From the NCBI GenBank assembly GCA_016929595.1, contig JAFGIN010000044.1:14269-78268 (forward strand): a stretch of DNA of 64,000 bases. The letters run 5' to 3'. Both the position numbers and the translations under genes were made by a program. Shown here piece by piece: positions 2,250 through 56,761 of the stretch. How positions within the stretch are numbered: the first letter of the stretch is position 1; every line of letters starts with the position of its first letter. Source of the stretch: Chitinispirillaceae bacterium (GTDB lineage Bacteria > Fibrobacterota > Chitinivibrionia > Chitinivibrionales > Chitinispirillaceae). Below the pieces are notes generated by a model. It did no database searches. It was given only the letters and a program-made list of their open reading frames with translations, and was not told where the DNA came from.

Positions 2250-3449
2250 TCATGGATCAACATCAAGATCATGAAGCGATCGCTTAATCAGCAAATGTCG
2301 CTTTCCCATATTGTATGCATCCACCGCACGCATTGAACCAACTATCGAACCGGTATAAAACCCCGATCCCAGAATTACAGCGAATGCAGCTGCGCCGTAG
2401 TTCTCCTGCTGAACAAACCCCACAGTTGCCCATGCGATAAGTCCGTTCAAAAGCAGGGAGAACAATGCCGTCCTTTTGCGATCGCCAAGAGCATAGCCAG
2501 CTCCCGGAACAATTGCAGAGAGGACTCCTGCAGCCGCAGCACTGCGCTTGCGGAAATGATCGAGTGAATAATTGAGCGAATCGATTCTTCCAGGGTAACT
2601 TGCAAGCGGTGACCCTTCGAAAAAATCTGATTCAGTCAATTCCGGTACCGAATCGATATCACAGAAAAGTGCGTTCACCTTTGATAGAAGCCGGTATTCT
2701 CCATGGAGCACGGGTGTAGTGAAATACGACCTGTACTTCTCAAGCACTGCATACGCCGTCGGATACAAGCCCTCAGAATAGCAACGCTTTGCTGCAAGAA
2801 GATACAGCTCCCCCCGCAGGCATCTCTGCTCTTCAGGGAGCAACTTTACTAACAATACTACTTCTCGTGTGAATCGCCGGTAATCGTAAGCATAATATGC
2901 TGCGAAAGCGGCTTTTAAAATCGTCGCCGAATCCCGATCACACAAAAGACTGCGGACATATTCAAAATATGCCTGTTCATAAAAGCCGTTTCTGTAAAGA
3001 TAATTCCCACCGTTTCCCATTGCAGCTCCGTCAACACTCTTCACTATGGAATCCTTATCAGAAATAACAGACGCCACAACATTCTGGTACGGATGGTCTA
3101 TCAGGCGCAACCTTTGTTCGATTATAGTATCTGTATAGGTATTGAAGTCGTGCCCGCACCGCAGCAGACGATCACAGATAAGCGGACAGGCCTGTAAAAG
3201 TGAGTAGTGCTCGATCACCCCTCGTGCATATTGCGAGCATGATGGATACATGGGGCAGTGCCTGCCGTCCAGAGGTGAAAGATAATACTGGTAAAAATCA
3301 AGAAAAAAAACAGGGTGTTTTTTCAATCCCACCCCTTCAGAGACTGGTAGTAAATCGATATCCTGACTAGTAACTGCAGCAAAAAACAGAAATATCATTT
3401 GTAATACGCATCTGCATCGTTTTCCATTTTCAGTGTAAACATTCTTCAT
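2250..3449 (-). CDS. Multidomain membrane protein with an N-terminal YidD-like domain (membrane protein insertion efficiency factor, DUF37/haemolytic domain). It is fused to a helical TPR-like region and two C-terminal TM helices.
   Basis: HCPMYPSCSQYARGVIEHYSLLQACPLICDRLLRCGHDF matches the YidD signature (C-x-YPSCSxY ... RLLRCHP). A hydrophobic N-terminus and C-terminal hydrophobic helices are present. Confidence 0.6.
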   Translation of the reverse strand: MKNVYTENGKRCRCVLQMIFLFFAAVTSQDIDLLPVSEGVGLKKHPVFFLDFYQYYLSPLDGRHCPMYPSCSQYARGVIEHYSLLQACPLICDRLLRCGHDFNTYTDTIIEQRLRLIDHPYQNVVASVISDKDSIVKSVDGAAMGNGGNYLYRNGFYEQAYFEYVRSLLCDRDSATILKAAFAAYYAYDYRRFTREVVLLVKLLPEEQRCLRGELYLLAAKRCYSEGLYPTAYAVLEKYRSYFTTPVLHGEYRLLSKVNALFCDIDSVPELTESDFFEGSPLASYPGRIDSLNYSLDHFRKRSAAAAGVLSAIVPGAGYALGDRKRTALFSLLLNGLIAWATVGFVQQENYGAAAFAVILGSGFYTGSIVGSMRAVDAYNMGKRHLLIKRSLHDLDVDP

Positions 3450-3460
3450 AGCTGTGGTAC

Positions 3461-4399
3461 TCAGGGTATACTGATTGAAAATGAGATGGTCGGCATATGA
3501 CCATAACGGGAGTTGTCACCTGGAGTCTCGAACATGTTACTGTTTTCATGTGAAATAAGGGTGTAACTGAATTCTAAAACACCGTGAATTTCATCAAACG
3601 GCATAAAAATACCGATTCCGAAATGAAATGCCGGACACCATTGACTAAAAGTGATTTTGCGATTCGATACAGTACCATTAAATGACTGTTTTCCCCGAAC
3701 AGCTTCTCGTTTGTAGCAAGCACCACCACCAAATGCGAGGTATAGTGAACGGCTCGGCGTTGGCGGTACAAAAAGTATCTGCCCTTTAAGTGGCAGAATA
3801 AATTCATTGCCGTTCTCACCCGAAAAAACCGTTGTTCCAATCTTTGACCCATCAACAAACACATCCTTTTCCATATCGACCAGAATATTATCCAGGGCTG
3901 CCGATGGCTCAAGGGAGAGTCGCACACCGAAAAAAGTATCCGGAAACCATGTCAATGCAACAACTCCGCCCGGGACAAAACCGGCTGCAATACTTTTACT
4001 ATAGATAATGCCTCCCATGACAATTCCACAGGAGAAATGCAATGGTGAGGTGGAATAGCCGCACGGCTCAGTATTCTCTACGGTAGTAGTTCTTTTTTCG
4101 TACGGCAGCCGATCATTATCAGATTGATCACTACTGGAAGAAGAGGCAATATTTCCCACACCACTGAATATTCCATCAATGCAACCACTAATACAGTCAC
4201 CAGACAGATCGCTAAGGCAATTACCCATACAGGAACTCAGAAAATCCCCGCTTCCCGAACTTCCCCCCGACTCGCTATCATCTGATGATGTGTTTTTTTT
4301 TCTGATCCTGATACGACCGTAGGTGGTGTCGCTATCAGCTTCAGTGAGTAACGGTACATTCAAAATGAAACATATGAAAAGAATTATTATTTTTGGCAC
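3461..4399 (-). CDS. Secreted hypothetical protein with a Ser/Gly/Cys-rich low-complexity N-terminal region and a beta-rich C-terminal part. Its function is unknown.
   Basis: Signal-peptide-like start MPKIIILFICFILNVPLL and the cysteine pattern SSCMGNCLSDLSGDCISGCIDG. It sits 12 nt upstream of, and co-oriented with, the YidD-fusion gene. Confidence 0.5.
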   Translation of the reverse strand: MPKIIILFICFILNVPLLTEADSDTTYGRIRIRKKNTSSDDSESGGSSGSGDFLSSCMGNCLSDLSGDCISGCIDGIFSGVGNIASSSSSDQSDNDRLPYEKRTTTVENTEPCGYSTSPLHFSCGIVMGGIIYSKSIAAGFVPGGVVALTWFPDTFFGVRLSLEPSAALDNILVDMEKDVFVDGSKIGTTVFSGENGNEFILPLKGQILFVPPTPSRSLYLAFGGGACYKREAVRGKQSFNGTVSNRKITFSQWCPAFHFGIGIFMPFDEIHGVLEFSYTLISHENSNMFETPGDNSRYGHMPTISFSISIP

Positions 4400-4481: not shown

Positions 4482-5798
4482 CTAAAAATACAATATCCGC
4501 TTTCCACCTTTAAAAACACTGACCCGACGAGTCGATTCTGATAGTGCGACAGCAATCGCTCTGGTTGCACAACTGATATTTACTGCTGCTGTATGACGGG
4601 CACCGAACCCTTTGAGAAGTGGATCCTGATTATTCTCAGCTTTCAGAAATACACTGGAGGTAAGAATGACTCCATCCCCCCTGATAATAAAAGCTCCATC
4701 GAGCTTTGAGAACTCCTTGATAGTCGCTTCCAGGCCAGGATCAAGCACATTACGGTTCTCTTCACGGTAGCCACCAAACGGGTTTACCACCATCTGCTGA
4801 CAGGATTTCAGAACCTCTTCAGAATCCCCGAGGATAAATATTGTACCAACCGGTTTCCCCTCCCTCCCTTCAGCAGCCAGTTCGCCTGCGATCTGGATAA
4901 TTCTGGCCAGAACATGATGTTCAAGGTCAAGGGGGCGACTCTCGGTACTGGTAAGGAAGAAAAGGTCAAACCTTGACGTATCGGATATAAGTAATGAATC
5001 GATTTTTCCGGAACCCGGTTCACCCAGAACACTGATAATACGGCTGTTTTTCTTTAACAGACCACGTGAAATAAGGTAGATAAGAACTAGCTCAGCCTGA
5101 CTTGTACGATTAACATTTCCAAAAGGAAGCTGAAGAATTTCATTGACACCTGCAATCTTTTCCGGGTAAAGATTCGGATCTGGACAGACAAGATAGAACG
5201 CGCCCTTAAATTTTTTCAGGTTTACCGGTGGGATACCTTCAGTAACATCATGATACACAATTGCAGCCACATTAAGTTCAGATCCGAGTTCACAGGCTTT
5301 TTCCAGCATGTGTGAGGCAGTGAGCTGCGCGGTAGTCAATTTTCCTGACCGTCGTACTACTGCGGGTGCTCCATTAAGGAGATTGAATAGTTTTTTAGTG
5401 CTTTTTGCTTTCAGTAATTCTTCTACAGTTTCAGGATCATTCAACCTTTCAGCTACCAGTGCCAGTATCTTGAGATGTTCAAGCCCATCTCCAACAATCA
5501 GAATGATTAACCGGACTTTTGTGGGATCATTGGGATCGTAATCGATTCCCTCAGGACTTAATCCGATTGCCGCCTGCGTTGATTTGAACCCGGGTATCAA
5601 CGCATGGGGAATGGCGATTTCAGGAAGTAATCTGGTTGAAATTGTCGCTTCGCGTTCCTGCACGAGATCGAAAATCTGATTACGCTCGATTCCATGTGCT
5701 TCAGCGTCAATAAGAGCAATCAACTCCTTAAACGCTTCATCCCGTGTTCTGGCTTTCAGAAGTGTGGTACGTTCTATATTGAAAAATTCACTTGACAA
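4482..5798 (-). CDS. Diadenylate cyclase (DAC domain, c-di-AMP synthase) with an N-terminal PTS EIIA type-2 (PtsN/EIIA-Ntr-like) regulatory domain.
   Basis: The C-terminal part (LDGAFIIRGDGVIL...GARHTAAVNISCATRAIAVALSESTRRVSVFKGGKRI) matches the DGA and RHRAA motifs of the DisA_N/CdaA DAC domain. The N-terminal part (LPEIAIPHALIPG with a conserved His) matches PTS_EIIA_2. Confidence 0.75.
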   Translation of the reverse strand: MSSEFFNIERTTLLKARTRDEAFKELIALIDAEAHGIERNQIFDLVQEREATISTRLLPEIAIPHALIPGFKSTQAAIGLSPEGIDYDPNDPTKVRLIILIVGDGLEHLKILALVAERLNDPETVEELLKAKSTKKLFNLLNGAPAVVRRSGKLTTAQLTASHMLEKACELGSELNVAAIVYHDVTEGIPPVNLKKFKGAFYLVCPDPNLYPEKIAGVNEILQLPFGNVNRTSQAELVLIYLISRGLLKKNSRIISVLGEPGSGKIDSLLISDTSRFDLFFLTSTESRPLDLEHHVLARIIQIAGELAAEGREGKPVGTIFILGDSEEVLKSCQQMVVNPFGGYREENRNVLDPGLEATIKEFSKLDGAFIIRGDGVILTSSVFLKAENNQDPLLKGFGARHTAAVNISCATRAIAVALSESTRRVSVFKGGKRILYF

Positions 5799-5980
5799 TG
5801 TATCCTCCGCAGTCCCCCGTGCACTATTTCCCGGTCATATGATAGCACTGTAACGTATCGCGTAGAAACGAGTACGTAAATTTCATCACAGGTAATCATA
5901 CAATATAACCTTTGCATGATTAGAAAAACAATGTATTGAGCATGATTACATCAACTACGATCATTTTCAGAAGAGCATTT

Positions 5981-6820
5981 TTACCAGTGAGGTTGATTGC
6001 CGACATTTTCCCCAGTCACATCACTGGCATCCATAATTGCAACGAAGGCATCAGGATCTCTTTTCATGATCAGCGATTTGAGAGTTGGCACTTGGGTCTG
6101 ATTAATAACAGAATACAGAACTGACATATCGGTCCCCAGAAATCCTCCCCTTCCCTGCAGTAATGTCACTCTCCACCGATTACCATTATTGATGTCTTCG
6201 ACAATTTTTTCCCATTGTGAAGAGATAATAATAACCACCCTCCTTTTTGATAAACCATGAAAAAAATAATGAGAAATCCTCGCACTTGTCACGATAAAAA
6301 CGACTGTATACAAAACACTTTCCAGAGGAAACAACACCAGCGAAATGATCATCACTACAGCATTTATTATAACGCTTCCCAAACCTATAGACAAACCAAA
6401 AAGTTTGTTTAAAATGGCAACGATAATTTCAGACCCTCCGGCAGTCCCGTAGGAACGCAGCATTATTGCTATACCTGTACCGTTAATAGTACCTGCAAGG
6501 CCTGCAGCCAGCAGTTTATCGGTAATCGGAAGCTTTATTTCCGGCATGAAAAGAAGAGCTGAATAGATCACAATTCCCCATGCAGTATAGAGAACAAACC
6601 GTAACCCCACGAATTTAAAACCCAGTAAGAACGCCGGGATATTAATTAACATGTAAATTAATCCAACCGGCAGAAGTTGAGATTTGTGATAAATGATCAG
6701 CGACAGACCCGTCAGGCCGCTTGAAAGAAACCCAAACGGTACCAGCACCGCCTTGAGTGCAAATGCACACAATGCACTTCCAATAATCAGCAGTAATGTA
6801 TTGTAAAAAAAATTTTTCAT
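5981..6820 (-). CDS. YitT-family membrane protein (DUF161 membrane repeats plus a C-terminal DUF2179 domain).
   Basis: Four or five TM helices, followed by a soluble C-terminal domain (RVVIIISSQWEKIVEDINNGNRWRVTLLQGRGGF...MKRDPDAFVAIMDASDV) typical of DUF2179. Confidence 0.6.
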   Translation of the reverse strand: MKNFFYNTLLLIIGSALCAFALKAVLVPFGFLSSGLTGLSLIIYHKSQLLPVGLIYMLINIPAFLLGFKFVGLRFVLYTAWGIVIYSALLFMPEIKLPITDKLLAAGLAGTINGTGIAIMLRSYGTAGGSEIIVAILNKLFGLSIGLGSVIINAVVMIISLVLFPLESVLYTVVFIVTSARISHYFFHGLSKRRVVIIISSQWEKIVEDINNGNRWRVTLLQGRGGFLGTDMSVLYSVINQTQVPTLKSLIMKRDPDAFVAIMDASDVTGENVGNQPHW

Positions 6821-20228: not shown

Positions 20229-20873
20229 GTGATTTACATGTTTGAAGCTGTTGCCCGTTTCTTTCAACAGGGTGGAGTCTGGATGTATCCAATCGTAGCC
20301 GTCTCGGCATTTGCTCTGGCGGTGATATTTGAACGTCTGTTCTATTATTATTTCCATTGCAGAATAAATGCAAAAGGTTTACTTACACAAATAACCCGGT
20401 TTATCCGGGGTGGTGATCTCGAAAAAGCCCGTCAGATATGTACAAAAACAAAATCTCCATTATCAGTGATTCTGGAATGCGCAATCTGGCATTATCAACA
20501 GCAGGAGCCAGACCAGGAGATCCAGAATGCAATCGATGAAATTGCATTACGAGAACTGCCAAGGATTCAGAGAAATACACACTATTTGTCACTGTTCGCC
20601 AATATTTCTACACTCCTGGGTCTGCTCGGTACGATCTTTGGCCTTCAGGAAGCTTTTGGTGCCCTGAGCGCTGCGGATCCATCTCAAAAAGCAACTGTAC
20701 TTGCGAATGGTATTGCAATTGCCATGAATACAACAGCACTTGGATTGATTGTTGCAATTCCCTGTATGATAATGTTTTCGGTACTCGGCTCAAAATCCAA
20801 CAGTATTATTGAAGAAATCGATGAGTCATCTGTGCGTCTGCTCAACTTTTTATTTTCACAGCGACGAATGTAA
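20229..20873 (+). CDS. exbB: MotA/TolQ/ExbB proton-channel family protein.
   Basis: Three TM helices with the characteristic LGLLGTIFGLQEAF...GIAIAMNTTALGLIVAIP region, and an AGGAG Shine-Dalgarno site. Confidence 0.85.
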   Translation: MIYMFEAVARFFQQGGVWMYPIVAVSAFALAVIFERLFYYYFHCRINAKGLLTQITRFIRGGDLEKARQICTKTKSPLSVILECAIWHYQQQEPDQEIQNAIDEIALRELPRIQRNTHYLSLFANISTLLGLLGTIFGLQEAFGALSAADPSQKATVLANGIAIAMNTTALGLIVAIPCMIMFSVLGSKSNSIIEEIDESSVRLLNFLFSQRRM

Positions 20874-20890
20874 TAAAACTGAAAAAGTGA

Positions 20891-21385
20891 TTGATAACAA
20901 CCATGGCAAAAACATTTCCAGCAACTAAACGTGTCAAAAAATCCACGGGGCAATCTGTTGTACCCTTTGATCTGGACGTCACGCCTGTGATGAACCTTTT
21001 TATGGTGCTCATCCCGTTTTTAGTCTCAATGGCAGTGTTCACACATATTGCGGTTGTGGATTTTTCTCTTCCCCCTGCACAGAGTGAAAACTCTGAAGGC
21101 AGTGAAGAGACAAAAGAGCTTGATATTTCAATCGTTGTAACAGTACAGGGATTTCGTATTGTTGGAACCGGTAAAAAACTTGACTTAATAGAAAAATCAC
21201 GAGGACAATACCAGTATGAACAGTTGCGGATATTGTTGAAGGCTATTAAATTCCAGTATCCTTCACAAAAAAGTGTCGTCCTGGTACTGGAATCTGATAT
21301 TCTTTATGATGATATCATCAAATTTATGGACATCTGCCGAGAGTCCCAATTCCCGGATATTGGTCTGTCAGGAGATATCGGATGA
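20891..21385 (+). CDS. exbD: ExbD/TolR biopolymer transport protein (paralog 1).
   Basis: A single N-terminal TM (DVTPVMNLFMVLIPFLV) followed by an ExbD periplasmic domain. Confidence 0.8.
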   Translation: MITTMAKTFPATKRVKKSTGQSVVPFDLDVTPVMNLFMVLIPFLVSMAVFTHIAVVDFSLPPAQSENSEGSEETKELDISIVVTVQGFRIVGTGKKLDLIEKSRGQYQYEQLRILLKAIKFQYPSQKSVVLVLESDILYDDIIKFMDICRESQFPDIGLSGDIG

Positions 21386-21702
21386 AACTGAAAGCCAGCA
21401 CGATCAAAGGGTATCCTTCACTTGAAATATCCGGTCAGATTATTGGAGACTATGCAGCACAAGTCAAATCAAAAATCGATACCATCAGCCGTAAACACAA
21501 AGGTAACCTGGTTATCAACCTCTCAGAAGTTACCTTCATAGACAGTTATGGATTAGGTGTTTTAGTTTACATTTGGAAGTTATACAGGAGTAACTCCAGA
21601 GATATTATTTTTCTCTGCAGTGGTAATTTCGATCTGGATATATTTTCGGCAGCCAACCTCGATTCTCTGTTTACAATTATACGATCTGAGGGTGAATTAT
21701 GA
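21382..21702 (+). CDS. STAS-domain protein (SpoIIAA/anti-sigma-factor-antagonist-like) embedded between the two exbD genes.
   Basis: NLSEVTFIDSYGLGVLVYIWK matches the STAS fold signature. There are ATGA overlaps with both flanking exbD genes. Confidence 0.65.
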   Translation: MKLKASTIKGYPSLEISGQIIGDYAAQVKSKIDTISRKHKGNLVINLSEVTFIDSYGLGVLVYIWKLYRSNSRDIIFLCSGNFDLDIFSAANLDSLFTIIRSEGEL

Positions 21703-22217
21703 GCTTTCCGGCCTCGAAATCTTCATTGAAGATGGTCCGCAAAACACGCGGTAGAAAATCTATTCAAGGAATAAAGCCCCAATTGACATCACTTATTGAT
21801 GTAATGACAATTCTCCTTATTTATTTACTGAAAAGTTTTTCATCTGAGGGTGAAATCGTTACCGTTTCAAAAAATCTGATACTTCCCGAATCATCTGCAC
21901 AGAAAAGACCGGAACTTAATGTCACACTGACAGTAAACAGCTCGGTCATTATGGCAGAGGATAAAGTTGTAGCCGATGTGCAGAAAGAGCTCAATACTGA
22001 AGATCTTGTTATAAACGGCTTAAATTCATGGCTTCAGACGCGCAGGGAAGCGACAGAAAAAATTTCTCAATACTCTACTAAAACAAAATTTAAAGGTGAC
22101 ATTACTATCCAGGGGGATAAAAGAATCCGCTTCAGGCTTTTAAAAAAAATCATGTACACCTGCGGACAGCAGGGATATAACAATTTTTCACTTGCAGTCA
22201 GAAAAAAAGGGGACTGA
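21699..22217 (+). CDS. exbD: ExbD/TolR biopolymer transport protein (paralog 2).
   Basis: The N-terminal TM (LTSLIDVMTILLIYLL) plus an ExbD-like periplasmic domain. Confidence 0.8.
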   Translation: MSFPASKSSLKMVRKTRGRKSIQGIKPQLTSLIDVMTILLIYLLKSFSSEGEIVTVSKNLILPESSAQKRPELNVTLTVNSSVIMAEDKVVADVQKELNTEDLVINGLNSWLQTRREATEKISQYSTKTKFKGDITIQGDKRIRFRLLKKIMYTCGQQGYNNFSLAVRKKGD

Positions 22218-22220
22218 ACT

Positions 22221-23276
22221 TTGCGTGAAAATAGAGTCATTGTTGTATCCTCCTCCACATCAGGCACTCTGAGCAACAATATCATCAATTCGATCCGGGG
22301 TACTCCTTTTTCTTTTTTCAAGTCGCGTTTATTCCTTCCTGTACTTTTCTCACTGCTATTCCACAGTATGCTGATCTATTATGTTAACTCGATAAAAATT
22401 TCTCCTGAAGAAACTATTGTAATAGAGAATGTGTCTGAGCGTTTTGCCAGGCTTATAATCGAAAAACCACTTCCAAAAAAAGTTCCTCAGCCGACCAGAA
22501 GTGACCAGCCAGGTGAATCTGGAGAACAAAAAACAACACAGCAGACGCAAACTCAATCCCAGACAGAATCCGGCCCGATTACAACGGTACAGCGGAAAAA
22601 AGCGAAGACTAAAGTTCAAGCACAAGTAAATAAGGTAGAGCAAAAAGTGCGGACCGTAGGTGTTCTGGGAATGCTCACCGGAGTTGGCGCTACCGCAAAG
22701 GGTCCGGCAGTAGCGGATGTACTGGGTGCAATAGGCGATAAAAAAGATAATTTTAAAGATCTTGATGATGCACTCAACAAAATGACCGGGCTTAAAAAGA
22801 CGCCATCCATTGACATACTAGACAAAAAGCTGGTTAAAAGCAAAGAGGTCTCAATATCACACAAAGAAGAGATTGATGACCTGATTGCCGGCATTGGACA
22901 AGCGGAATCAGTGAATCTGTCAAAAAAAGGGAACTTTATCATCCAGAGGCCTGAAAGCATTGAAGGCGCAGCATCATCGAATGCCCGAAGAGATAACAGT
23001 GCAATAAATGAGATCGTTTCTTCCCACAAATCCAGTATCCGAATGACTTACGAAAAATTTTTAAAGCGAGATCCCACACTAGCCGGAAAAGTAACCGTAC
23101 GATTTACCATTACAGCATCAGGCTCTGTGACCAAAATCCAGATTATTGAAAACACCACTGGTAACAGTGAATTTGAAGAGGAGATTCTCAGGAAACTGAG
23201 AATGTGGAAATTTGATCCCATACCTGAAGGCGAAGTGACGGTTTCGTACCCCTTTGTTTTCTCCTCATCAGGGTAA
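22221..23276 (+). CDS. tonB: TonB-family energy transducer (N-terminal TM anchor, Pro/Gln/Lys-rich linker, TonB C-terminal domain). It probably starts at a TTG.
   Basis: The C-terminal stretch AGKVTVRFTITASGSVTKIQIIENTTGNSEFEEEILRKLRMWKFDP matches TonB_C. Confidence 0.8.
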   Translation: MRENRVIVVSSSTSGTLSNNIINSIRGTPFSFFKSRLFLPVLFSLLFHSMLIYYVNSIKISPEETIVIENVSERFARLIIEKPLPKKVPQPTRSDQPGESGEQKTTQQTQTQSQTESGPITTVQRKKAKTKVQAQVNKVEQKVRTVGVLGMLTGVGATAKGPAVADVLGAIGDKKDNFKDLDDALNKMTGLKKTPSIDILDKKLVKSKEVSISHKEEIDDLIAGIGQAESVNLSKKGNFIIQRPESIEGAASSNARRDNSAINEIVSSHKSSIRMTYEKFLKRDPTLAGKVTVRFTITASGSVTKIQIIENTTGNSEFEEEILRKLRMWKFDPIPEGEVTVSYPFVFSSSG

Positions 23277-23300
23277 CTATTTGCATTCTCCGGAGTAACT

Positions 23301-24194
23301 ATGAAAATTTCCATGACAATCTCTTTACTTTTCCTGCTATTGTCCAGTTCTTCTGCAGCCGTTATAACTCGCGGCTCGGTACTTGACATTCAAGTACTGC
23401 AGCACCCTGAATTTTCTGGTCGGTTTGCGGTCAGTGAAAACGGGACTATCGAATATCCGCTGCTTGCCGATGTCCCTATTGCGGATGTAACGACATCGGA
23501 ACTTATGAATGATCTCACCCTTCGTCTTATACGCCATGTCGACAATCCTCTGGTACTGGTTTCAATAGTTCAAGACCTCCCGGTAGTAATCGAAGTACTT
23601 GGTCAGGTCGTAAACCCCGGTCATATCACGATCACTAAAGGTGCATCTTTGCAGGAAGTTCTCAAAATTGCCGGCGGTCCACTTGAAAGTGCAGATCTAT
23701 CCCGAATTAAAATTATCTACCATGACCGTCCGCGTACACCGATAATGTATGACTTTGACAAATTCACTAAACAGGGTGACATAGAAAATATGCCGACACT
23801 GCAAGCTGATGATCAGGTAATCGTTCTTGCCCGGGAACGTACAAAAAAAGTAAAAGTAATCGGTGCAGTACGTAAACCTGGATTATTCACACTGGATGAG
23901 AAGATGAATCTTTTTGAAATTATCTATCTGGCAGGAGGGCCTGATGAAAAAGCGGATCTTTCAAAGATCCGGAGATTCTCTCAGAAATCTGACACTACAA
24001 CGAATGAAGAGCTCCTTGATATCCAGTCCTATATAGATAATGGTAAAATGGATGACATTCCGTTAGTTAACGAAGGAGATATCATCATTGTCTACTCTAA
24101 ATGGTTTGATTGGAAAACACTTCTTACGGTTCTGAACAATGCACTACTTTTTGTTGTGACAATCCAGACTTTTGCGGGATTATTGGAAAAATGA
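23301..24194 (+). CDS. wza: Polysaccharide export protein (Wza-like; Poly_export plus SLBB domains).
   Basis: The Poly_export motif (LDIQVLQHPEFSGRFAVSENGTIEYPLLADVPIADVTTSEL) and the SLBB repeat (VIEVLGQVVNPGHITITKGASLQEVLKIAGG). Confidence 0.85.
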   Translation: MKISMTISLLFLLLSSSSAAVITRGSVLDIQVLQHPEFSGRFAVSENGTIEYPLLADVPIADVTTSELMNDLTLRLIRHVDNPLVLVSIVQDLPVVIEVLGQVVNPGHITITKGASLQEVLKIAGGPLESADLSRIKIIYHDRPRTPIMYDFDKFTKQGDIENMPTLQADDQVIVLARERTKKVKVIGAVRKPGLFTLDEKMNLFEIIYLAGGPDEKADLSKIRRFSQKSDTTTNEELLDIQSYIDNGKMDDIPLVNEGDIIIVYSKWFDWKTLLTVLNNALLFVVTIQTFAGLLEK

Positions 24195-26356
24195 ACCAGA
24201 TTATGACTCCTAAGCTTCGCACCAGTTCTGGTTTATACGAATATATCTCAATTGTGATCAGAAGAAGATGGATCATAATTATTTCATTTTTTAGTGTTTT
24301 TTTATCAACTCTTTACTATGTTAACCAATTAGAAGATGTTTTCGAATCCTACTCCACAATTGTTATTGAAGAACACAATACGTATGTTAACCAGATGATA
24401 AACACCCCCGTACGATCGCTGGATTTTTACGAAGGGATTCTAAACAGCCGCAGTTTTTTAAAATCGGTACTTGACAGTATCGATCTTGAAACATTCAAAC
24501 GAAATATTCCAAAAATGGATCAGGAGAACGCGTTACATTATATTAATAACAATTTTATAATGCGAAAAACAACGTACACCTCATTTCTTCAGCTCTCAGC
24601 ACACGCACCGGTTAAAGAACTTGCCTTTGCTATCGCTTCAAAGGGCACAGAAATTTTTCGCACACGATGTCAGGAAGTTGCCGGTGAAGAATCCCGGCTG
24701 GCAGTAACAGAAATAGAAAAACAGCTTGACATTGTAAGATCCAATCTTGAAAAAGCAGAACATGATTACAGAAGTTTCAGTGAAAAAAACGGGCAGATTC
24801 AGGAAGGTTCCACACCAGAGTTGAAGACTTTACAGGAAGCCTATGCCGGTGGTCTTGCGCAATCCGGACTGAAAGAAGCAGATCTTAATGCAGAAAAGAA
24901 ACTTCTTGCCAGACTTGAAACTAAAATAAATCCGGAAAGCGACAACCGTTCACCAGAATATTTAAAGCTCAGATCACGGCTTCGTGAGCTTGAGAAAGAG
25001 AAGATGCGGCTTGAAGAACTTGGGATACGGTTAAGCGGCCTTTCGACTGTTGACAGAGACATTGTAGCAGTTGAAACTGAATTGCTGAAATACAAGCAGA
25101 CATCCTTGGTCACAACTACCGATCCAGGTATGATCCGTCAATGGCAGGAACTGAGGAAATCTGTACTTGCAAAAGAAACCGAGCTTGAACTGTTCAAAAG
25201 AAAACTGGAAGCATACAAAAAAGCAATTAATACCTACAAATCAGAAAATCCGGATATACTCTCCAACTCTCTTGAGTTATTGCGTCTGGAAAGATCAAAG
25301 GAAGTCTATGAAAACATTTACTCCATGCTTCTGGAAAAACTCGAAGAGGAACGAATTAAAAGCAGATCCAGTACAGCCGGTGTCAAAATTGTCGATCTGC
25401 CTCTTATGCCATCCAACCCCATACCCAAAAATGAGCATCGTTTCTATCTTTTGGGTATACTCCTTGGTTTAATCTTAGGAGTTGGTCTCGCTTTTTTAAT
25501 TGAATTCAATGACACATCTCTCAAAAATAATGAGGACATCGAAAAATACCTTGAATTACCGGTAATGGGAACGATTCCACACATAACAATTAGTAAAAAA
25601 AACGACATAGAAATTCAACGCAAATCAGCAAAATCATCAAAACAGGTCTCCGTTACGCAATATCCTCGTTCGGTGCTTAATTTCAGTGGTGATGATTCTG
25701 TAATCGCCGAATCGTACCGGTCTTTACGCACAAATTTATCATTCGTAAGCCCTGACCATCCGCTTCGGACAATAGTGCTGACTTCAGCCGGACCATCAGA
25801 AGGTAAGTCGTTAACAATATCCAATCTCGCTGTTGCATATGCCCAGATGGGAAAAAGAACGTTACTTGTTGATTCAGATCTGCGTCGACCGGTACAGCAT
25901 CATATTTTTAATCAAAAACGAGAGCCTGGCCTTTCTGACTGTTTCATCGATAACCCTGATTTTGAACGTATTATCAAAAAAACCGAGAAAGATAACCTGT
26001 TTGTTATCACAGCGGGAACTTTTACCCCCAATCCGGCGGAGCTGATTGCATCCAACAGGATGAGTAAACTGATCGAATATTTCAAAGAAGCATTTGATGT
26101 GGTCTTTTTTGATACTCCGCCAATAGTCGCGGTAACCGATGCAACACTGCTCAGTAAAAAAATGGATGGCTTACTTCTTGTCGTACGATCTAATCATACA
26201 GACAGAATGATGGCATCCAGAGCAATAGGTAACGTCAAAAATGTGGGTGTCAATGTAATCGGCACAGTACTCAATGATATAAACCTGTCGAACAGATACA
26301 CCAGTTATGGCTACTATAAATATTACTATCATTATTATAAATCCAGGACCAGCTGA
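24191..26356 (+). CDS. wzc: Polysaccharide co-polymerase/BY-kinase (Wzc-like chain-length determinant plus tyrosine autokinase). The start is placed at an internal ATG that overlaps the wza stop (ATGA).
   Basis: Two TM segments, Walker A (TSAGPSEGKS) and Walker B (VVFFDTPP), and a C-terminal Tyr cluster (YTSYGYYKYYYHYYKS). Confidence 0.85.
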   Translation: MNQIMTPKLRTSSGLYEYISIVIRRRWIIIISFFSVFLSTLYYVNQLEDVFESYSTIVIEEHNTYVNQMINTPVRSLDFYEGILNSRSFLKSVLDSIDLETFKRNIPKMDQENALHYINNNFIMRKTTYTSFLQLSAHAPVKELAFAIASKGTEIFRTRCQEVAGEESRLAVTEIEKQLDIVRSNLEKAEHDYRSFSEKNGQIQEGSTPELKTLQEAYAGGLAQSGLKEADLNAEKKLLARLETKINPESDNRSPEYLKLRSRLRELEKEKMRLEELGIRLSGLSTVDRDIVAVETELLKYKQTSLVTTTDPGMIRQWQELRKSVLAKETELELFKRKLEAYKKAINTYKSENPDILSNSLELLRLERSKEVYENIYSMLLEKLEEERIKSRSSTAGVKIVDLPLMPSNPIPKNEHRFYLLGILLGLILGVGLAFLIEFNDTSLKNNEDIEKYLELPVMGTIPHITISKKNDIEIQRKSAKSSKQVSVTQYPRSVLNFSGDDSVIAESYRSLRTNLSFVSPDHPLRTIVLTSAGPSEGKSLTISNLAVAYAQMGKRTLLVDSDLRRPVQHHIFNQKREPGLSDCFIDNPDFERIIKKTEKDNLFVITAGTFTPNPAELIASNRMSKLIEYFKEAFDVVFFDTPPIVAVTDATLLSKKMDGLLLVVRSNHTDRMMASRAIGNVKNVGVNVIGTVLNDINLSNRYTSYGYYKYYYHYYKSRTS

Positions 26357-28161
26357 TGTCCTTTCATATAATCCCGGGAAACCTGCGTACATTTTCAGAG
26401 AACAAGCATTACAAAAAACTCTGGGGATCTGCTATATCCTCTGCTCCGTATCTTTTAAGAAAATTCATCAATTTTTTCTCATTTAAGCACAGTGGTGTTG
26501 AACGACTGATACAAAAGTGTTCAGAGAACGCCCGTATTATTGACTTCGGAGCAGGATCCTGCAGTTTCAGCAAGTATCTTGCATCCAGGCGTAACTTTAC
26601 CGTTATAGCCGTAGACTGGTCATACACCGCCTTAAAAAACGCCCATTTGAATTTCCCGAATGCCCGGATTCTACCAGTATGTGCCGATCTTCATTATCTG
26701 CCCTTTAAAAAAAATGCATTCTCAGCATTTATCACCATTGACACATTCGGACATCTCTACAATCAGGAAATGGCATTTGATTGTCTTCTTAATACTCTGC
26801 AACCGGGAGCCTGCGGTTTCTTTCATAGTGAGTGTGCTGATTACCGGAAACGCTGGCCGGATTCCATGTTACTGCGCAGGATTGGTCATGATATTCCAGC
26901 GGAATCCGACGGTCACATCTCCTTATTTCCGGGTGCTGCTATCCTACGAGCTCTTAAATGTCGATTTACTGTGCTATCCTCTTTTTCTCCGGCAGGATAC
27001 CTCGGCTGGTTAACGGGATACCCGGAAAAATATACGGAGGCATTTGCCCGTGCCGGAGATAAACCAATGTACCGGCTGACCAGTTTAATGGCCCACATGA
27101 AAAATCATCTCATTGGCAAATTACTTCTCAGAATTATCAACTATTCAACCAATCGTATTGAACTCTTTTTAAACCTTCAGGGCGGCGGATCTTTCTTTGC
27201 CGATGTGATTAAACCGGTAGAAGAGAAAAGGATAAATAAAACATCAATCGATATAATCATCCCTACATACCGCAGAGAAGAGCAACTTAACATCCTGATC
27301 GGACATCTTCTGCCACAATGTAAAGATCATGATACAATCATTATCATTTCTCAGGATCTATCCTTAACCTTGAAACACTCTTCCAGACATATTCATGTGC
27401 TCCATAATTTTCCTCCGAACCTCCCGGATGCCCGAAACAGAGGTGCACTCAGCGGAAACGGTGATATTATTCTGTTTCTCGATGATGATACTATACCATG
27501 TGATGCTCTGCTTGAAAAGCACCGCACTGCCTATCTGGACAAAACGATTAATTGTATTGCCGGATCGATTGCTGACACGCAATTCCCGACAACGGAACAA
27601 CCATCATTTTTCGATATTCATACAGGGAAGCTTATACAAAATTTCACATTCCCCGACATTTCATTTTCAATCAGTTTTATGGGTGCACACTTTTCATTGC
27701 GTCGCAGTGTTTTCGCAGAGACTGGCCTGTTCGATACCTCGTTTACCGGCAGTGCACACTGGGAAGATATCGATTATTCTTTTCGATTACAAAAAAAAGG
27801 GTATAGGATATATTACAATCCGGAAATCAGAGTTACCCATCTGAGCACAACCAGAGGCGGCTGCCGGTCAGTTACGCAATCGGCATTCTGCTTCAATTAT
27901 TTCACCAACTCTGCATATTTCTCACTGAAGTACGCACCTGTCCGGTATTATTCATCATGGTTTACTTACTGGAAGTACCGTATTGAATTTGAAACCCGCA
28001 CACATCAGGCAACAACATTTCCTAAACACAGTATATATCTCCTCAGCGCATCATTCCTTGGGATTGCAGCAGCAGCAGTCCGTTTTATTTGCAAAGGTAA
28101 AAGAGTCGGACTTCCTGAAACAGTTATTCACCAGTGTGATCCGGGACACAGCAACCTATGA
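26356..28161 (+). CDS. Bifunctional class I SAM-methyltransferase (N-terminal) and family-2 glycosyltransferase (C-terminal).
   Basis: N-terminal IDFGAGSCSFSKYLA...VIAVDWS (Rossmann MTase motif I). C-terminal IDIIIPTYRRE...FLDDDTIP (GT2 DxD). Confidence 0.75.
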   Translation: MSFHIIPGNLRTFSENKHYKKLWGSAISSAPYLLRKFINFFSFKHSGVERLIQKCSENARIIDFGAGSCSFSKYLASRRNFTVIAVDWSYTALKNAHLNFPNARILPVCADLHYLPFKKNAFSAFITIDTFGHLYNQEMAFDCLLNTLQPGACGFFHSECADYRKRWPDSMLLRRIGHDIPAESDGHISLFPGAAILRALKCRFTVLSSFSPAGYLGWLTGYPEKYTEAFARAGDKPMYRLTSLMAHMKNHLIGKLLLRIINYSTNRIELFLNLQGGGSFFADVIKPVEEKRINKTSIDIIIPTYRREEQLNILIGHLLPQCKDHDTIIIISQDLSLTLKHSSRHIHVLHNFPPNLPDARNRGALSGNGDIILFLDDDTIPCDALLEKHRTAYLDKTINCIAGSIADTQFPTTEQPSFFDIHTGKLIQNFTFPDISFSISFMGAHFSLRRSVFAETGLFDTSFTGSAHWEDIDYSFRLQKKGYRIYYNPEIRVTHLSTTRGGCRSVTQSAFCFNYFTNSAYFSLKYAPVRYYSSWFTYWKYRIEFETRTHQATTFPKHSIYLLSASFLGIAAAAVRFICKGKRVGLPETVIHQCDPGHSNL

Positions 28162-29261
28162 ATGTTGGATGGTTGTTTCCCGATAGAGAACGATGCGGCA
28201 TTGCAATCTACTCCCGAAACTATATTTCCGCACTAAAAAAGCATTGTGACATAAAATCGGTAAATAGTGACCAATGGCCGGACAGTCCGGAGAAATTCAG
28301 CGGAGATCTTAACAGCTGCGACTTGATTCACATTCAATATGAAAACTCACTTTTTGCAATGCGTAATCGCGATTACTATACTACTCTTTTACGTACACTA
28401 AAAAAGCCACTGATCGTGTCGCTCCATGAAGTGTACCGACATTTTCCAGGTGTTTTCCCACGGGATCAGATCAGGGGTGGAATTTTTGTATCATCAATTA
28501 AAAGGTGGTATTATGATTTCAGGCACCCTCTTCAAACTGCATATAATAAACACGTTTCATCCGGCTTCGGAGCATCAGTGCTGCTTGTCCATCACCACGC
28601 TCATAAAGAGATACTAGAGAAAAGGATACCACACAGCTGCCCGATACTCGTTTTACCACATCCGGTATTGAAAGTGAAACACATTGGTTTGGCCAATCGT
28701 TCACAAAAAGGATCTATTATGCTGGGTTCAACTGGTTTTATAAATCCGGAATTTGATTATCTTTTATTATTTGAGACACTTCAAAAATTAAATTGTGAGT
28801 GGAAGTTCTTATGGATCGGAGGGATTAGAATCCCGGAGCACCTGAAATTACTCGATAGTATTAACCAGGAGGTCAATAAAAGACACTGGAAAGATAAATT
28901 TATCATCACCGGCTGGGTCTCAGAAGAAACTCAGAATGACCTCCTTCAAAGCATTGATATCTATTGTGCATTTTTTAAAAACCGAAGCTCATCGGGCAGT
29001 CTGGCACGGGCGATAGGAGCATACCGGTTTATCATTGCCACAGAGTCTCATATTGTTCATGAAATAAACGTCTCCCGGAAAAACAACGTAATCACAGTGG
29101 TCAATGCAGACAGTAATCAGATTGCAGAAAAAATTGATTTCCTTTCAATTGATAAGACCTCACTTATGCAGCTTCAAACCCTGGATGATTATACTACCAC
29201 CTTTAATTTCGATACGATGGCCCTAACATTGATTAAATTGTATAAAAGCATCACACTGTAA
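28158..29261 (+). CDS. Putative glycosyltransferase (GT-B, group 1-like).
   Basis: ATGA coupling to the upstream gene, a weak GT-B C-terminal domain pattern, and operon context. Confidence 0.45.
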   Translation: MNVGWLFPDRERCGIAIYSRNYISALKKHCDIKSVNSDQWPDSPEKFSGDLNSCDLIHIQYENSLFAMRNRDYYTTLLRTLKKPLIVSLHEVYRHFPGVFPRDQIRGGIFVSSIKRWYYDFRHPLQTAYNKHVSSGFGASVLLVHHHAHKEILEKRIPHSCPILVLPHPVLKVKHIGLANRSQKGSIMLGSTGFINPEFDYLLLFETLQKLNCEWKFLWIGGIRIPEHLKLLDSINQEVNKRHWKDKFIITGWVSEETQNDLLQSIDIYCAFFKNRSSSGSLARAIGAYRFIIATESHIVHEINVSRKNNVITVVNADSNQIAEKIDFLSIDKTSLMQLQTLDDYTTTFNFDTMALTLIKLYKSITL

Positions 29262-29416
29262 GATAACACTAATTATTTTTGGAATAATTGCACGACCTCT
29301 GCTCATACTTTTATGTTTCGGACTGAGCGGCTCTACGTTGAAAAACCGTCTCTCCAGACAGTTGAATAGTGATCCGTTTCGGACTTTTCTAAAAACTTTC
29401 TCTCAGAACCAGCTCT

Positions 29417-30496
29417 ATGAAGAAAAAGAAGCGACTATTGTGGGATTTCCGTTTATATTCGACCACTTATGCAAAAAGGGGTGTTGGTACTTATTGTACT
29501 GCTCTTTGCAAACAATTATTTCCGCTACTCGAAGATTTCGACATCTATATCTGGGGCAACGTTAATAATGCACCAGAATTTCTCAGAAATGCACCGGTAC
29601 ACTGGATACCATATGATTCAACCTCATGGAAGAAGGATCTTTTCAGAATTCCCCTTCTGATTTACCGATTTAAGATCAGTATTTTTCATTACTGGATACA
29701 TCTGGGCCCCCTGGACAAATGTGGAACCGGCCTTTTCCACCCCTGCAGAACGATTGCGACAGTGTATGATCTTGGTGTTGAGTTGTGGGATCTGCCCCAT
29801 TCAAATATGATCAGGAAAAGGAAATTCTGGACTATTCAGAAAATTCTTTCAAAATCAATCAATACAATATGCGCTATTTCTTCTCACACAAAGAACGATT
29901 ACATTAAGCTGTTTTCACGAAAAGAGACATCTATTCAGATCATATATATGCCGCACGACCAGCCCCATTTCTATAAAAGAAATCTCGTTTCCCCCTATTT
30001 CCTGTTCCTTCGTGGCAGTGAACATAAAAATGAGAAGAATATTGTTGCTGCATTTCTTAAATTTCATGAAAAACACCCCTCTTACTCACTGATCCTGCTA
30101 GGTGAGAACGCAAGTGCTCATGATACTTCATTTTATACAAAGGAAAAGAACATTATCACCGAGCCATCCATGGATTATTATCATGATTATCTCTGTCATG
30201 CAACGGCTCTTCTTTTCTGTTCGTTTCAGGAAGGGTTCGGCATACCTCCGATTGAGGGAATGGCTGAAGGGTGTCCGCTGATAGTCTCCGATATTCCCCC
30301 TCTTCGGGAGACATGCGAAGACTCTGCGTTGTTTGTCGACCCGAATAATATTTGTCAAATTGAAGAAGCTATGATTGCATCAATTGAAAATAATACAAGC
30401 TGGTCGAAGAGATCATTTTCTGCAGGAAAAAGGTATCGCAGTAATTCATCAGAAAGTGCCCCGCATCTTTTGCAATGTTATAAGATGCTGACATAA
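29417..30496 (+). CDS. Glycosyltransferase family 1 (GT4-like).
   Basis: EGFGIPPIEGMAEGCPLIVSDIPPLRE matches the GT1 EX7E region. Confidence 0.8.
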   Translation: MKKKKRLLWDFRLYSTTYAKRGVGTYCTALCKQLFPLLEDFDIYIWGNVNNAPEFLRNAPVHWIPYDSTSWKKDLFRIPLLIYRFKISIFHYWIHLGPLDKCGTGLFHPCRTIATVYDLGVELWDLPHSNMIRKRKFWTIQKILSKSINTICAISSHTKNDYIKLFSRKETSIQIIYMPHDQPHFYKRNLVSPYFLFLRGSEHKNEKNIVAAFLKFHEKHPSYSLILLGENASAHDTSFYTKEKNIITEPSMDYYHDYLCHATALLFCSFQEGFGIPPIEGMAEGCPLIVSDIPPLRETCEDSALFVDPNNICQIEEAMIASIENNTSWSKRSFSAGKRYRSNSSESAPHLLQCYKMLT

Positions 30497-32229
30497 TGGA
30501 ACTGATATCAATTGTCATTCCAACTCATAACCGTTCGGCACAATTGGCTGCTTGTATTAATTCAATACTTTCGCAAGAAAACGCTCCTCCACCTCTGATT
30601 ATTGTTGTTGATGACGGTTCAATTGAAGTGCACGCCCGCTCTAACAGTGAATATTGTAAAAAAAATAATCTCATCTATATCTTTCTGCCGCAGTCAGTGG
30701 GTCTGGCAGCGGCAAGAAACCGCGGTATAGAAAGCTCAGACTCACATTGGATTGTATTTCTTGATGATAATGTCATTGTCGGGCAATCGTGGTTCCAACG
30801 AATTTCTGTACTACTTTCCACCTGCCCATCATCTCTGGCTGCAGTGGAAGTAAGAGTTGAACCATCCGATCAGATGAAGAACCTTTCAGGCGAAACATTT
30901 TTATCCTGCCACTTTGCTTGCCGGCGGGATCTACTGCTTGTTGAAAAGGGGTTTGACGAGCATTTCAAAGATCCCCATTGTATAGATCATGAACTTGCAG
31001 CTCGTCTGCTCGGTCATGGAGAGATCTTTTTTGCTGATGATATACATGTCACTCAACAGCAACGATCGTTTAGTCGCCTTAAATACCTTTTCTCAATCCG
31101 CAAAAAAATAAATATAGAGCTCCAGTCTGAATTTCGATTCTTCTCAAGGCACCCTGACCGTTATCATGCATTCAGAAAAAAAAGAACATTTCCGGGTACC
31201 GTTATATCACGTTGCTTATTCCCTATGATCCTTGAGCTCAGACGCAGGCCATTAAAACAAATAACTGAAAATATTCCCGATTGTATCCTGTTATGTATCA
31301 CAATCCTGTTCGAGCAGGTTTTTACCGTTTTCTGGGCAGCAAAACACCTATCACTTTTTTTCAACCCTCTCAGATCTTTTTTACACAATTATATTGAAGG
31401 CGACAGGACTCTGGCACTCTGGAAGATTACGGGTTCAGATCTGAAACCATTTACAATGAAAAGATGTTATATAAATGCAGCCACATTCCCGTTTTTTCGC
31501 CGTCCTGTTTACAATGCATACCATACACATAAAAAAATATCTTCAGGATCTCAACACAATGCATGTCAGATATTTGTTCGTATCGATGATCTTTTTTTTG
31601 ATGATACGGCAGCGATTGAACTCTTTTCAACCGTCATAAAAAAATTAAATATATCAGTAATGACAGCTGTTCGGGGAAATGATATTCTTAATGAAGAATA
31701 CCATCCTCTGCTTGAGAGACTTAAAGACTCGGGAATTTTTATTGGAATACATGGGTTTGTTCATGAAGGGACCTTTGGACCATTTGACAGTGAACTACTA
31801 CAAATGAAATACGGATCATTTGAAGCACAGATCTGTCTGGTTATCAGAACTCTGCATATATGGAAGCAAAAACATTCCATTCTTGTTCCGCCATTTAACG
31901 CTATCAACAGTTTGCAGATTGTACGCTGGTCAAAACTCTGCAGCATCATTTGCGGAGGCCCGGAAACAGCCCGATTTACCGGACAGGTGTATGGACCTGT
32001 TGCATTATCAGATGGAGGCTGGTATTTTCCTTCAGTACATCCGTTTTACGGAAATGCAGATGTCATGTTAAAAAATGGTGTTCCATCCATGATCGAAAAT
32101 CTCAAAGGTCCACTCTGTTTAACGATGCATTTTACGCAGGAAAGAAAAGATGGTTTTCGTTCCTTTACAAACCTGCTTGAGTGTATGCATCCACAAATTC
32201 ACTGTTGGGAAAAAACTAAAAACTGGTGA
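30496..32229 (+). CDS. Family-2 glycosyltransferase fused to a C-terminal polysaccharide-deacetylase-like (DUF2334-type) domain.
   Basis: N-terminal ISIVIPTHNRSAQLAACINSIL...VVDDGS. The C-terminal region (RIDDLFF...GIHGFVHE) resembles predicted deacetylase folds. Confidence 0.6.
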   Translation: MELISIVIPTHNRSAQLAACINSILSQENAPPPLIIVVDDGSIEVHARSNSEYCKKNNLIYIFLPQSVGLAAARNRGIESSDSHWIVFLDDNVIVGQSWFQRISVLLSTCPSSLAAVEVRVEPSDQMKNLSGETFLSCHFACRRDLLLVEKGFDEHFKDPHCIDHELAARLLGHGEIFFADDIHVTQQQRSFSRLKYLFSIRKKINIELQSEFRFFSRHPDRYHAFRKKRTFPGTVISRCLFPMILELRRRPLKQITENIPDCILLCITILFEQVFTVFWAAKHLSLFFNPLRSFLHNYIEGDRTLALWKITGSDLKPFTMKRCYINAATFPFFRRPVYNAYHTHKKISSGSQHNACQIFVRIDDLFFDDTAAIELFSTVIKKLNISVMTAVRGNDILNEEYHPLLERLKDSGIFIGIHGFVHEGTFGPFDSELLQMKYGSFEAQICLVIRTLHIWKQKHSILVPPFNAINSLQIVRWSKLCSIICGGPETARFTGQVYGPVALSDGGWYFPSVHPFYGNADVMLKNGVPSMIENLKGPLCLTMHFTQERKDGFRSFTNLLECMHPQIHCWEKTKNW

Positions 32230-32239
32230 GGTGCGTTGT

Positions 32240-49658: not shown

Positions 49659-49694
49659 TCCAGACCGCTCTTACTTAACTTAAGGGACATACTT

Positions 49695-56752: not shown

Positions 56753-56761
56753 GATTATTCT

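Follow-up and report, generated by a model that had tools for sequence, protein, structure and literature searches.

What does a diadenylate cyclase listen to? Cyclic di-AMP (c-di-AMP) is an essential and at the same time toxic messenger for K+ and osmolyte balance, and little is known, for any class of cyclase, of the signals that govern its synthesis. The question is posed in a tractable form by a gene in a 64,000-nt stretch of DNA from a Chitinispirillaceae bacterium (contig JAFGIN010000044.1 of assembly GCA_016929595.1, positions 14,269 to 78,268 of the forward strand; hereafter the window). A first-pass annotation, made from the letters of this stretch, had recognized a diadenylate cyclase (DAC) domain fused to an enzyme IIA (EIIA) domain of the phosphoenolpyruvate (PEP)-dependent phosphotransferase system (PTS), beside a gene for a YitT-family membrane protein. 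We find that the gene product is most likely a soluble three-domain cyclase of the DacZ type from Chitinispirillaceae (Fibrobacterota). It belongs to a family that joins a well-understood input module, EIIA with an intact phospho-His site, directly to a cyclase, and that may be the easiest place to learn what a diadenylate cyclase responds to. The architecture will not surprise a specialist; the window gene does not represent a new kind of system, and its worth lies in pointing to an experiment that is tractable.

Domain architecture and active sites of the cyclase

Both open reading frames (ORFs) that the first-pass annotation had placed on the minus strand were recovered at their positions, 4482..5798 (438 aa) for the cyclase and 5981..6820 (279 aa) for its neighbor. 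Based on Pfam, NCBIfam and full-length homologs, the cyclase is built in the order EIIA, DacZ_P (a domain resembling the C-terminal domain of pyruvate kinase, PK_C) and DAC. Its TTG start (5798-5796) is credible because a GGAGG sequence lies 5 nt upstream and homologs in other organisms share this start. The Pfam scan bore out the fusion, matching PTS_EIIA_2 (PF00359, the mannitol/fructose/Ntr type of EIIA) at E 9.6e-22 (77.9 bits against a cut-off of 27) and DAC (PF02457) at E 2.8e-19 over residues 308-433 (69.3 bits, also against a cut-off of 27); the EIIA part has the EIIA fold as well. Translation returned the motifs that had been quoted for the two domains, AIPHA spanning residues 62-66 and, over residues 367-403, DGAFIIRGDG...GARHT. 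The description of an N-terminal EIIA and a C-terminal DAC domain thus holds at both ends of the protein, and what it had overlooked is a third domain between them, at residues ~153-283. The EIIA-DAC fusion is real, intact and under selection, and in a comparison of sequences both active sites, the EIIA phospho-site and that of the DAC domain, are intact in the window cyclase.

The middle domain bears on the class to which the cyclase belongs. Homologs match Pfam DacZ_P ("probable sensor domain"), DacZ_T and PK_C across this region, the family profile matches the pyruvate kinase C-terminal domain there (E 0.003), and the PK_C-like domain stands directly N-terminal of the DAC domain, as is typical of DacZ/CdaZ. 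The Pfam models DacZ_P, DacZ_T and DACZ_N, which fit family proteins above threshold, reportedly stem from Galperin's 2023 survey, the source also of a count of 22 DAC families. The first-pass annotation had implied that the fusion stood apart from the characterized classes, CdaZ among them; that separation did not survive, a PK_C-like/DacZ_P domain followed by DAC being the DacZ/CdaZ arrangement, and by its sequence the protein is a DacZ/CdaZ-type cyclase with an EIIA domain placed in front. Among NCBIfam models, the cyclase part was matched best by archaeal DacZ (NF041371, residues 285-436), at 106.5 bits against a cut-off of 430 and covering the DAC part of that model only; a score this far below the equivalog cut-off (106 vs 430 bits) marks the protein as a relative, not an ortholog, of haloarchaeal DacZ. 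[quoted passage not shown] Compared with these, the window protein has an extra N-terminal EIIA of ~145 aa; it is bacterial (Fibrobacterota) and has no mscS gene adjacent, whereas the H. volcanii DacZ gene does. Arg231, Gly259 and Asp267 of the middle domain are kept in fused and EIIA-less members alike, which argues that this domain has a role of its own, either in ligand binding or as an interface.

The catalytic residues were compared across the family, residue conservation being given here for 202 EIIA-bearing members and architecture counts for 258 family proteins. In the DGA motif (D367-G368-A369), D and G are present in all 202 members and A in 198, and R401-H402 of the RHR motif is kept in 201. 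The third position of the latter is Thr in the window protein and usually A, T or Q, rarely R, in fused and EIIA-less relatives alike, which makes it a trait of the clade. Ser420, Ser422 and Thr423 are nearly invariant. The 438-aa protein is very probably an active diadenylate cyclase. CdaA (with CdaR/GlmM), CdaS, DisA and CdaM share the homologous DAC domain and its DGA and R-H motifs with the window cyclase, but their regulatory modules differ (transmembrane helices, YojJ helices, a helix-hairpin-helix DNA-binding domain) and the similarity to their NCBIfam models is low (26-33 bits).

In the EIIA domain, alignment to solved structures places IAIPHA in register with IAIPHG of Escherichia coli PtsN and IAVPHG of EIIA-Mtl, and Arg49 and His108 in register with the two remaining active-site residues of these proteins. 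The histidines aligned to His65 are the phosphorylated His73 of PtsN and His65 of EIIA-Mtl. Among the EIIA-bearing members, His65 is found in 197 (97.5%; Q, S or R in the other five), Pro64 in 201, Arg49 in 194 (96%) and Glu50 in 200, while His108 is found in 160 (79%) and replaced by Tyr or Phe in 32. PtsN structures are the top structural and profile matches for this domain, and to this extent its earlier designation as Ntr-type stands; the NCBIfam models lend it no support, the fruA-type (53.4 bits, cut-off 103.5) and PtsN-type (TIGR01419, 45.4 bits, cut-off 138.7) scores being alike and both far below cut-off. The Ntr label is accordingly a soft one that derives solely from the ranking of structures. 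Compared with PtsN/EIIA-Ntr (E. coli, PDB ID: 1a6j; Burkholderia, 3urr/4gqx; Neisseria, 2a0j), the cyclase EIIA falls below the equivalog cut-off, cannot be told from a Fru-type EIIA by hidden Markov models (HMMs), and is covalently joined to its presumed target, whereas PtsN is free-standing and reaches its partners, TrkA and KdpD among them, in trans.

Table 1. Positions of the cyclase gene, its YitT neighbor and their features in the window
Feature	Position	Strand	Basis
EIIA-DacZ_P-DAC gene, predicted diadenylate cyclase, TTG start	4482..5798	-	ORF, Pfam/NCBIfam, full-length homologs
DAC catalytic domain, DacZ-type, residues 285-436	4491..4946	-	
R401-H402-T403, the clade's version of the RHR motif	4590..4598	-	translation; family conservation
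DGA catalytic motif, residues 367-369	4692..4700	-	translation; family conservation
Middle PK_C-like putative sensor domain, residues ~153-283 (Pfam DacZ_P in homologs), with conserved R231, G259, D267	4950..5342	-	
PTS_EIIA_2 domain, residues 5-142, nearest to PtsN/EIIA-Ntr	5373..5786	-	Pfam
Codon of His65, predicted phospho-acceptor (IAIPHA)	5604..5606	-	translation, structure-based alignment, family conservation
Shine-Dalgarno sequence GGAGG	5804..5808	-	5 nt upstream of the TTG start; read from sequence
Inverted repeat in the YitT-DAC spacer, 11-nt arms (TAATCATACAA / TTGCATGATTA), 8-nt loop	5893..5922	.	repeat search; no T-run
YitT-family membrane protein with C-terminal DUF2179, 279 aa, upstream neighbor	5981..6820	-	Pfam; AF2 model
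DUF2179 domain (residues 218-270) of PII-like fold, with PstA/DarA as nearest structures	6011..6169	-	Pfam, Foldseek, hhalign
RVTLLQGRGGFL, residues 217-228, fits the PstA ligand-binding consensus (R)xTxLxxxGGFL	6137..6172	-	translation; PMC4316997; subfamily conservation

Distribution of the family and context of its genes

The nearest named relatives of the cyclase are from a Chitinispirillaceae metagenome-assembled genome (MAG; 86% identity) and Chitinispirillum alkaliphilum (53%). A word-indexed search with the cyclase gave 398 matches, and nearly all of the top 120 are ~435-460 aa long and carry both Pfam domains. Relatives are encoded in at least 588 species genomes in a scan of one genome per species, the best 80 of these matches aligning nearly end to end, and a library clustered at 50% identity yielded 664 representatives at E<=1e-30. 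The fusion occurs in Chitinispirillia/Fibrobacterota, Spirochaetota, Verrucomicrobiota, Kiritimatiellae, Planctomycetota, Hydrogenedentes and Deltaproteobacteria; carriers in the Verrucomicrobiota include many Opitutaceae, among them the complete genome of Nibricoccus IMCC34717 (locus L064). Some Chitinispirillaceae copies share just 31-34% identity with the window protein, a distance that suggests two deep lineages or else paralogs. In two MAGs (L010, 9974-11301; L034, 10972-11430) the EIIA and DAC parts lie in separate ORFs, and these split genes are either pseudogenes or assembly errors.

The 258 family proteins include 199 with the order EIIA-middle-DAC, 45 with the middle and DAC domains only (median 315 aa), 11 in which the middle domain was too diverged for the HMM used, and a single permuted protein. 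Because the EIIA-less relatives match the middle and DAC part alone, EIIA is best seen as an add-on input. The permuted protein (P0301; loci L092, 6001-7443, and L093, 2706-4148) has the order DacZ_P-DAC-EIIA, with EIIA at the C terminus, and is an independent re-fusion of the same modules in reverse order; this second joining of the two argues that the EIIA and cyclase modules are functionally coupled. In P0352, a 680-aa protein of the representative library, DacZ_P-DAC is preceded by an N-terminal DHH/DHHA1 pair such as c-di-AMP phosphodiesterases and NrnA have; the protein could both break down and make c-di-AMP, or else be a gene-calling fusion.

The architecture has not escaped annotation. 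JGI names both functions, and NCBI calls such proteins either "PTS sugar transporter subunit IIA" or "diadenylate cyclase". DACs have been sorted into 22 families, a count quoted in PMC12901056. Representatives of DacC come from Deltaproteobacteria and Alkalispirochaeta and those of DacD from Opitutae/Verrucomicrobia (Braun et al. 2019, following the classes of Corrigan & Grundling 2013); these taxa overlap those with the fusion, which, like the fit of the Pfam DacZ_P model, hints that the architecture may already be listed under a class name in the published classifications. A gut-microbiome census places "DacZ" mainly in Verrucomicrobiota. The first-pass annotation had allowed for the architecture proving common and already characterized. 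Common it is, and represented in Pfam, but experimentally characterized it is not: no experimental study of an EIIA-linked or EIIA-regulated DAC turned up in the literature searched. The EIIA-DacZ_P-DAC family is catalogued in domain databases and biochemically uncharacterized, and the window gene is an ordinary member of it.

Gene context was analyzed in seven annotated contigs and 80 genome loci (87 related loci), further loci bringing the total to ~90. When all neighboring ORFs of the contigs and the 80 loci were clustered, the cyclase neighborhood was not conserved between phyla, and conservation was limited to synteny inside Opitutaceae and inside Chitinispirillales. The cyclase behaves as a stand-alone gene, apparently monocistronic and in scattered contexts. 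Among the 45 ORFs scanned in the 64-kb window there is no gene for EI, HPr/NPr, HprK, a second DAC, a c-di-AMP phosphodiesterase or a K+ transporter, and neither a c-di-AMP riboswitch nor any other Rfam family was found in the window. A P-type ATPase at 45835-47709 was considered as KdpB and rejected, being of the heavy-metal type.

Stand-alone EIIA genes lie at most 6 kb from the cyclase in three loci (L002, L007 and L012). In Pontiellaceae bacterium B12219 (L036, 7922-13354), genes for a Zn_ribbon_9-EIIA protein (296 aa), the EIIA-DAC cyclase and an AA_permease-EIIA protein (622 aa) follow one another in a row, and in these bacteria EIIA_2 seems to be a general, portable regulatory add-on. 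The idea that the AA_permease-EIIA protein is a KimA-like K+ importer found no support, as it resembles a generic amino-acid permease. Next to the 82%-identical cyclase ortholog, on the opposite strand, lies a gene for a 241-aa RelA_SpoT-domain protein of the small alarmone synthetase type (L001, 8856-9581, minus strand), so that two second-messenger enzymes adjoin. Within Chitinispirillales/Chitinivibrionales, two ORFs recur near the cyclase, ~4 kb upstream of it, one for a STAS-MlaE permease (425 aa) and one of 152 aa (L009, L043, L044, L049, L050 and L051).

Two genes separate the cyclase from an ABC-F gene in the window (2250-4399). They encode a 312-aa protein that matches no Pfam family and a protein of 399 aa in which a YidD domain is joined to an extension of ~300 aa, and are absent from the 94%-identical metagenome relative L090 (3094-3330), where ABC-F comes directly next; the difference suggests a recent insertion or deletion. 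In the 399-aa protein (2250-3449, minus strand), YidD, a membrane protein insertion efficiency factor that is normally a protein of ~85 aa, makes up the N-terminal part (residues 47-100). On the other side of the cyclase, the YitT gene is the same-strand upstream neighbor, as had been annotated, although the spacer counts 182 nt and not 183 bp. This spacer has no terminator-like site and its sigma-70-like matches are weak. The inverted repeat in it is not an intrinsic terminator because it has no T-run, and could be an operator or an RNA hairpin.

Proposed phosphotransfer control of the cyclase and its alternatives

DAC cyclases are generally regulated via control of the productive DAC-DAC encounter. 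Since c-di-AMP is made only by DAC domains paired face to face (PMC12699388), the C-terminal domain of the window protein would convert two ATP into c-di-AMP when two such domains meet in this manner. The middle domain, common to the EIIA-less bacterial relatives and archaeal DacZ/CdaZ, would represent the ancestral regulatory or oligomerization module, and may bind a small ligand through R231, G259 and D267. To this the N-terminal EIIA would add an input: His65, aided by Arg49 and His108, would be reversibly phosphorylated by HPr~P or NPr~P, and its phosphorylation state would alter the packing of EIIA on the rest of the protein, so that a productive DAC dimer is permitted or blocked. The output of c-di-AMP would then track PEP/pyruvate or carbon/nitrogen status. 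Judging from the conserved site, we consider it probable, if far from assured, that phosphorylation of His65 by HPr or NPr switches c-di-AMP synthesis; the phosphorylation itself, the identity of the donor, the direction of the switch and the physiological signal are what we infer here.

There is precedent for such control. EIIA-Glc~P activates the E. coli adenylate cyclase. In Caulobacter, phosphorylated EIIA-Ntr controls Rel (a Rel/SpoT homolog, RSH), inhibiting the Rel/SpoT (p)ppGpp hydrolase (PMC10118264). The logic of PTS control of cyclic AMP (cAMP) by EIIA-Glc and of (p)ppGpp by EIIA-Ntr is the one proposed here, with EIIA phosphorylation setting the level of a messenger, but these cases act in trans, whereas control of the window cyclase is predicted to act in cis and on c-di-AMP. 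If His65 phosphorylation does switch activity, it would tie c-di-AMP to carbon/nitrogen status through the PEP-dependent phosphorelay in Fibrobacterota, Spirochaetota and the phyla of the Planctomycetota-Verrucomicrobiota-Chlamydiota (PVC) group, and would stand beside PTS control of cAMP and (p)ppGpp as its counterpart for c-di-AMP.

Several observations weigh against phosphotransfer control. Five of the 202 members have no His65 and 32 carry Tyr or Phe at His108, the window protein has Thr in place of the last Arg of the classical RHR motif, in line with the DacZ-type clade at large, and the structural model of the cyclase has a predicted template modeling (pTM) score of 0.55, at which inter-domain contacts are unreliable. 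No EI, HPr/NPr or HPr kinase gene lies within the 64-kb window; HPr was undetected in the 87 related loci by tblastn with the HPr of E. coli and of B. subtilis and the NPr of E. coli as queries, a search that could miss short, divergent proteins; the genome paper of C. alkaliphilum makes no mention of the PTS, and the literature searched contained no biochemical test of any family member. Part of this also speaks for a different reading of EIIA, as a domain that has left phosphotransfer and serves, independently of phosphorylation, in ligand binding, protein binding or dimerization, which would leave the cyclase unwired from the PTS. The absence of PTS relay genes near the cyclase in the window and 87 other loci, the Q, S or R at His65 and the Y or F at His108, the NCBIfam scores far under the PtsN and FruA cut-offs, and the occurrence of EIIA_2 fused to unrelated proteins in these phyla are all consistent with it. 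In a domain that only binds, however, retention of the catalytic His at 97.5% across several phyla would be unexpected, and for this reason we favor a phosphotransfer role and regard loss of phosphotransfer as unlikely, though worth keeping in mind. That the DAC domain should serve anti-phage or other specialized signaling in place of housekeeping c-di-AMP homeostasis is hardly credible. Galperin's 2023 survey is said to associate some dac genes with defense of the CBASS type (cyclic-oligonucleotide-based antiphage signaling system), and one Verrucomicrobial locus has a HEPN_AbiU2-like gene (a weak match) upstream; against this, no defense neighbor is conserved in ~90 loci, the contexts are those of housekeeping genes, and the cyclase gene is widespread and, within phyla, passed on mostly by vertical descent.

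The YitT neighbor and other features of the window

The first-pass annotation had also proposed, on account of its adjacency and its PII-like domain, that the YitT protein is a receptor for the c-di-AMP made next door. The protein matches YitT_membrane (PF02588; E 1.2e-46, 159 bits) and DUF2179 (PF10035; E 2.3e-16, 59.8 bits), both above cut-off, and its AlphaFold2 (AF2) model (mean predicted local distance difference test, pLDDT, 81.6) has eight helices followed by a beta-alpha-beta-beta-alpha-beta domain. Foldseek of this model confirmed the PII-like fold of DUF2179: Staphylococcus aureus PstA (PDB ID: 4d3h) ranked first, level with a DUF2179 crystal structure (3hlu), followed by 3m05, PstA with c-di-AMP (4wk1), DarA (4rle) and Listeria PstA (4rww), all of them before canonical PII, GlnK and SbtB. 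Aligned by hhalign to a profile of 16 PstA-family sequences, DUF2179 scored 24.6 (P 0.001, 57 columns, probability 20%), against 11.4 +/- 2.3 and a maximum of 17.2 for 40 column-shuffled controls. The similarity of single sequences of DUF2179 and DarA/PstA was dismissed as being at noise level, HIV protease flaps scoring equally. DUF2179 and PstA/DarA (PF06153) thus have the fold in common, with TxLxxxGGFL in register, but DUF2179 is the C-terminal domain of a membrane protein and has no B'-loop. The YitT subfamily ends in GNQPHW (window 5984-6001, minus strand) in 18 of 22 aligned homologs down to 42% identity, the other four differing only at His; PstA likewise ends in an aromatic/Gln tail (HQF), and its Gln108 contacts c-di-AMP.

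In PstA, T28A and the change of GGFL to AAAA abolish c-di-AMP binding, Arg26 and Phe36 stack on one adenine, and loss of Asn41 weakens binding 25-fold (PMC4316997). The window YitT protein has R217 at the position of Arg26 and Met232 at that of Asn41, and lacks the GN(TT) part of TKLxxxGGFLxxGNTT; Thr219, Gly225, Gly226 and an aromatic residue at 227 are conserved in its subfamily. A receptor role, with DUF2179 binding the c-di-AMP made next door and gating the membrane part of YitT, can point to PstA, DarA and Listeria PstA as the best PDB matches, ahead of canonical PII, to a profile score exceeding all 40 shuffles, to the fit of RVTLLQGRGGFL to the PstA consensus TKLxxxGGFL, in which Thr28 and the GGFL loop are indispensable for binding (PMC4316997), to the conservation of T219, G225, G226 and the aromatic at 227, and to a second, different DUF2179 membrane protein, with DUF5698, 1.8 kb from the permuted cyclase in L092/L093. 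The binding site itself is only partly matched, since Asn41 is replaced, the 57 aligned columns do not include Gly47, Phe99 and Gln108 of PstA, and the region of the B'-loop is missing; Arg217 is limited to the closest relatives, the PstA site sits between trimer subunits, the HH probability is 20%, and no Pfam CdAMP_rec (PF06153) match was found on the YitT protein at E<0.01. We also know of no report of YitT proteins from the S. aureus whole-ORFeome screens for c-di-AMP binding, which counts against a receptor.

Nor does gene order help. Over ~90 loci, the YitT-cyclase pair recurs only in L090 (94%/92% identical), where ABC-F directly follows the cyclase; it is absent beside the cyclase orthologs of 86% (L003) and 82% (L001) identity and at the locus of a 73%-identical YitT ortholog (L088). 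With tblastn, YitT/DUF2179 was absent from the 87 loci, and a sensitive, broadened DUF2179 HMM found none in the 80 genome loci either and was positive in only two lineages, window/L090 and L092/L093. Two lineages in ~1.4 Mb of flanks match the 0.7-1.4 expected by chance. The pairing is a local accident of gene order, the adjacency does not sustain the proposal made from it, and we consider a c-di-AMP receptor or effector role for this YitT protein improbable. The resemblance of DUF2179 to PstA is separate from gene order and offers a testable lead on a very large family without an assigned function. It is a long shot, but the DUF2179 domains of the YitT and UPF0316 families might be membrane-tethered cousins of PstA/DarA that bind c-di-AMP or a related adenine nucleotide via the TxLxxxGG(F/Y) loop; if so, YitT proteins would constitute a large, overlooked class of c-di-AMP-controlled membrane effectors.

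Elsewhere in the window, a set of ExbB, ExbD, ExbD and TonB genes precedes a cluster for polysaccharide export and glycosyltransferases (20229-33319), and genes for glycosyltransferase, methyltransferase and asparagine synthase make up a second cluster (53691-61408). At 45835-51843 on the plus strand, three consecutive SPFH/Band_7 genes (650, 192 and 414 aa) come after the gene for a heavy-metal P-type ATPase (TIGR01525, 529 bits). A DUF4423 gene lies at 40455-41291; this domain is typical of Fibrobacter-like genomes and fits the taxonomic assignment of the window.

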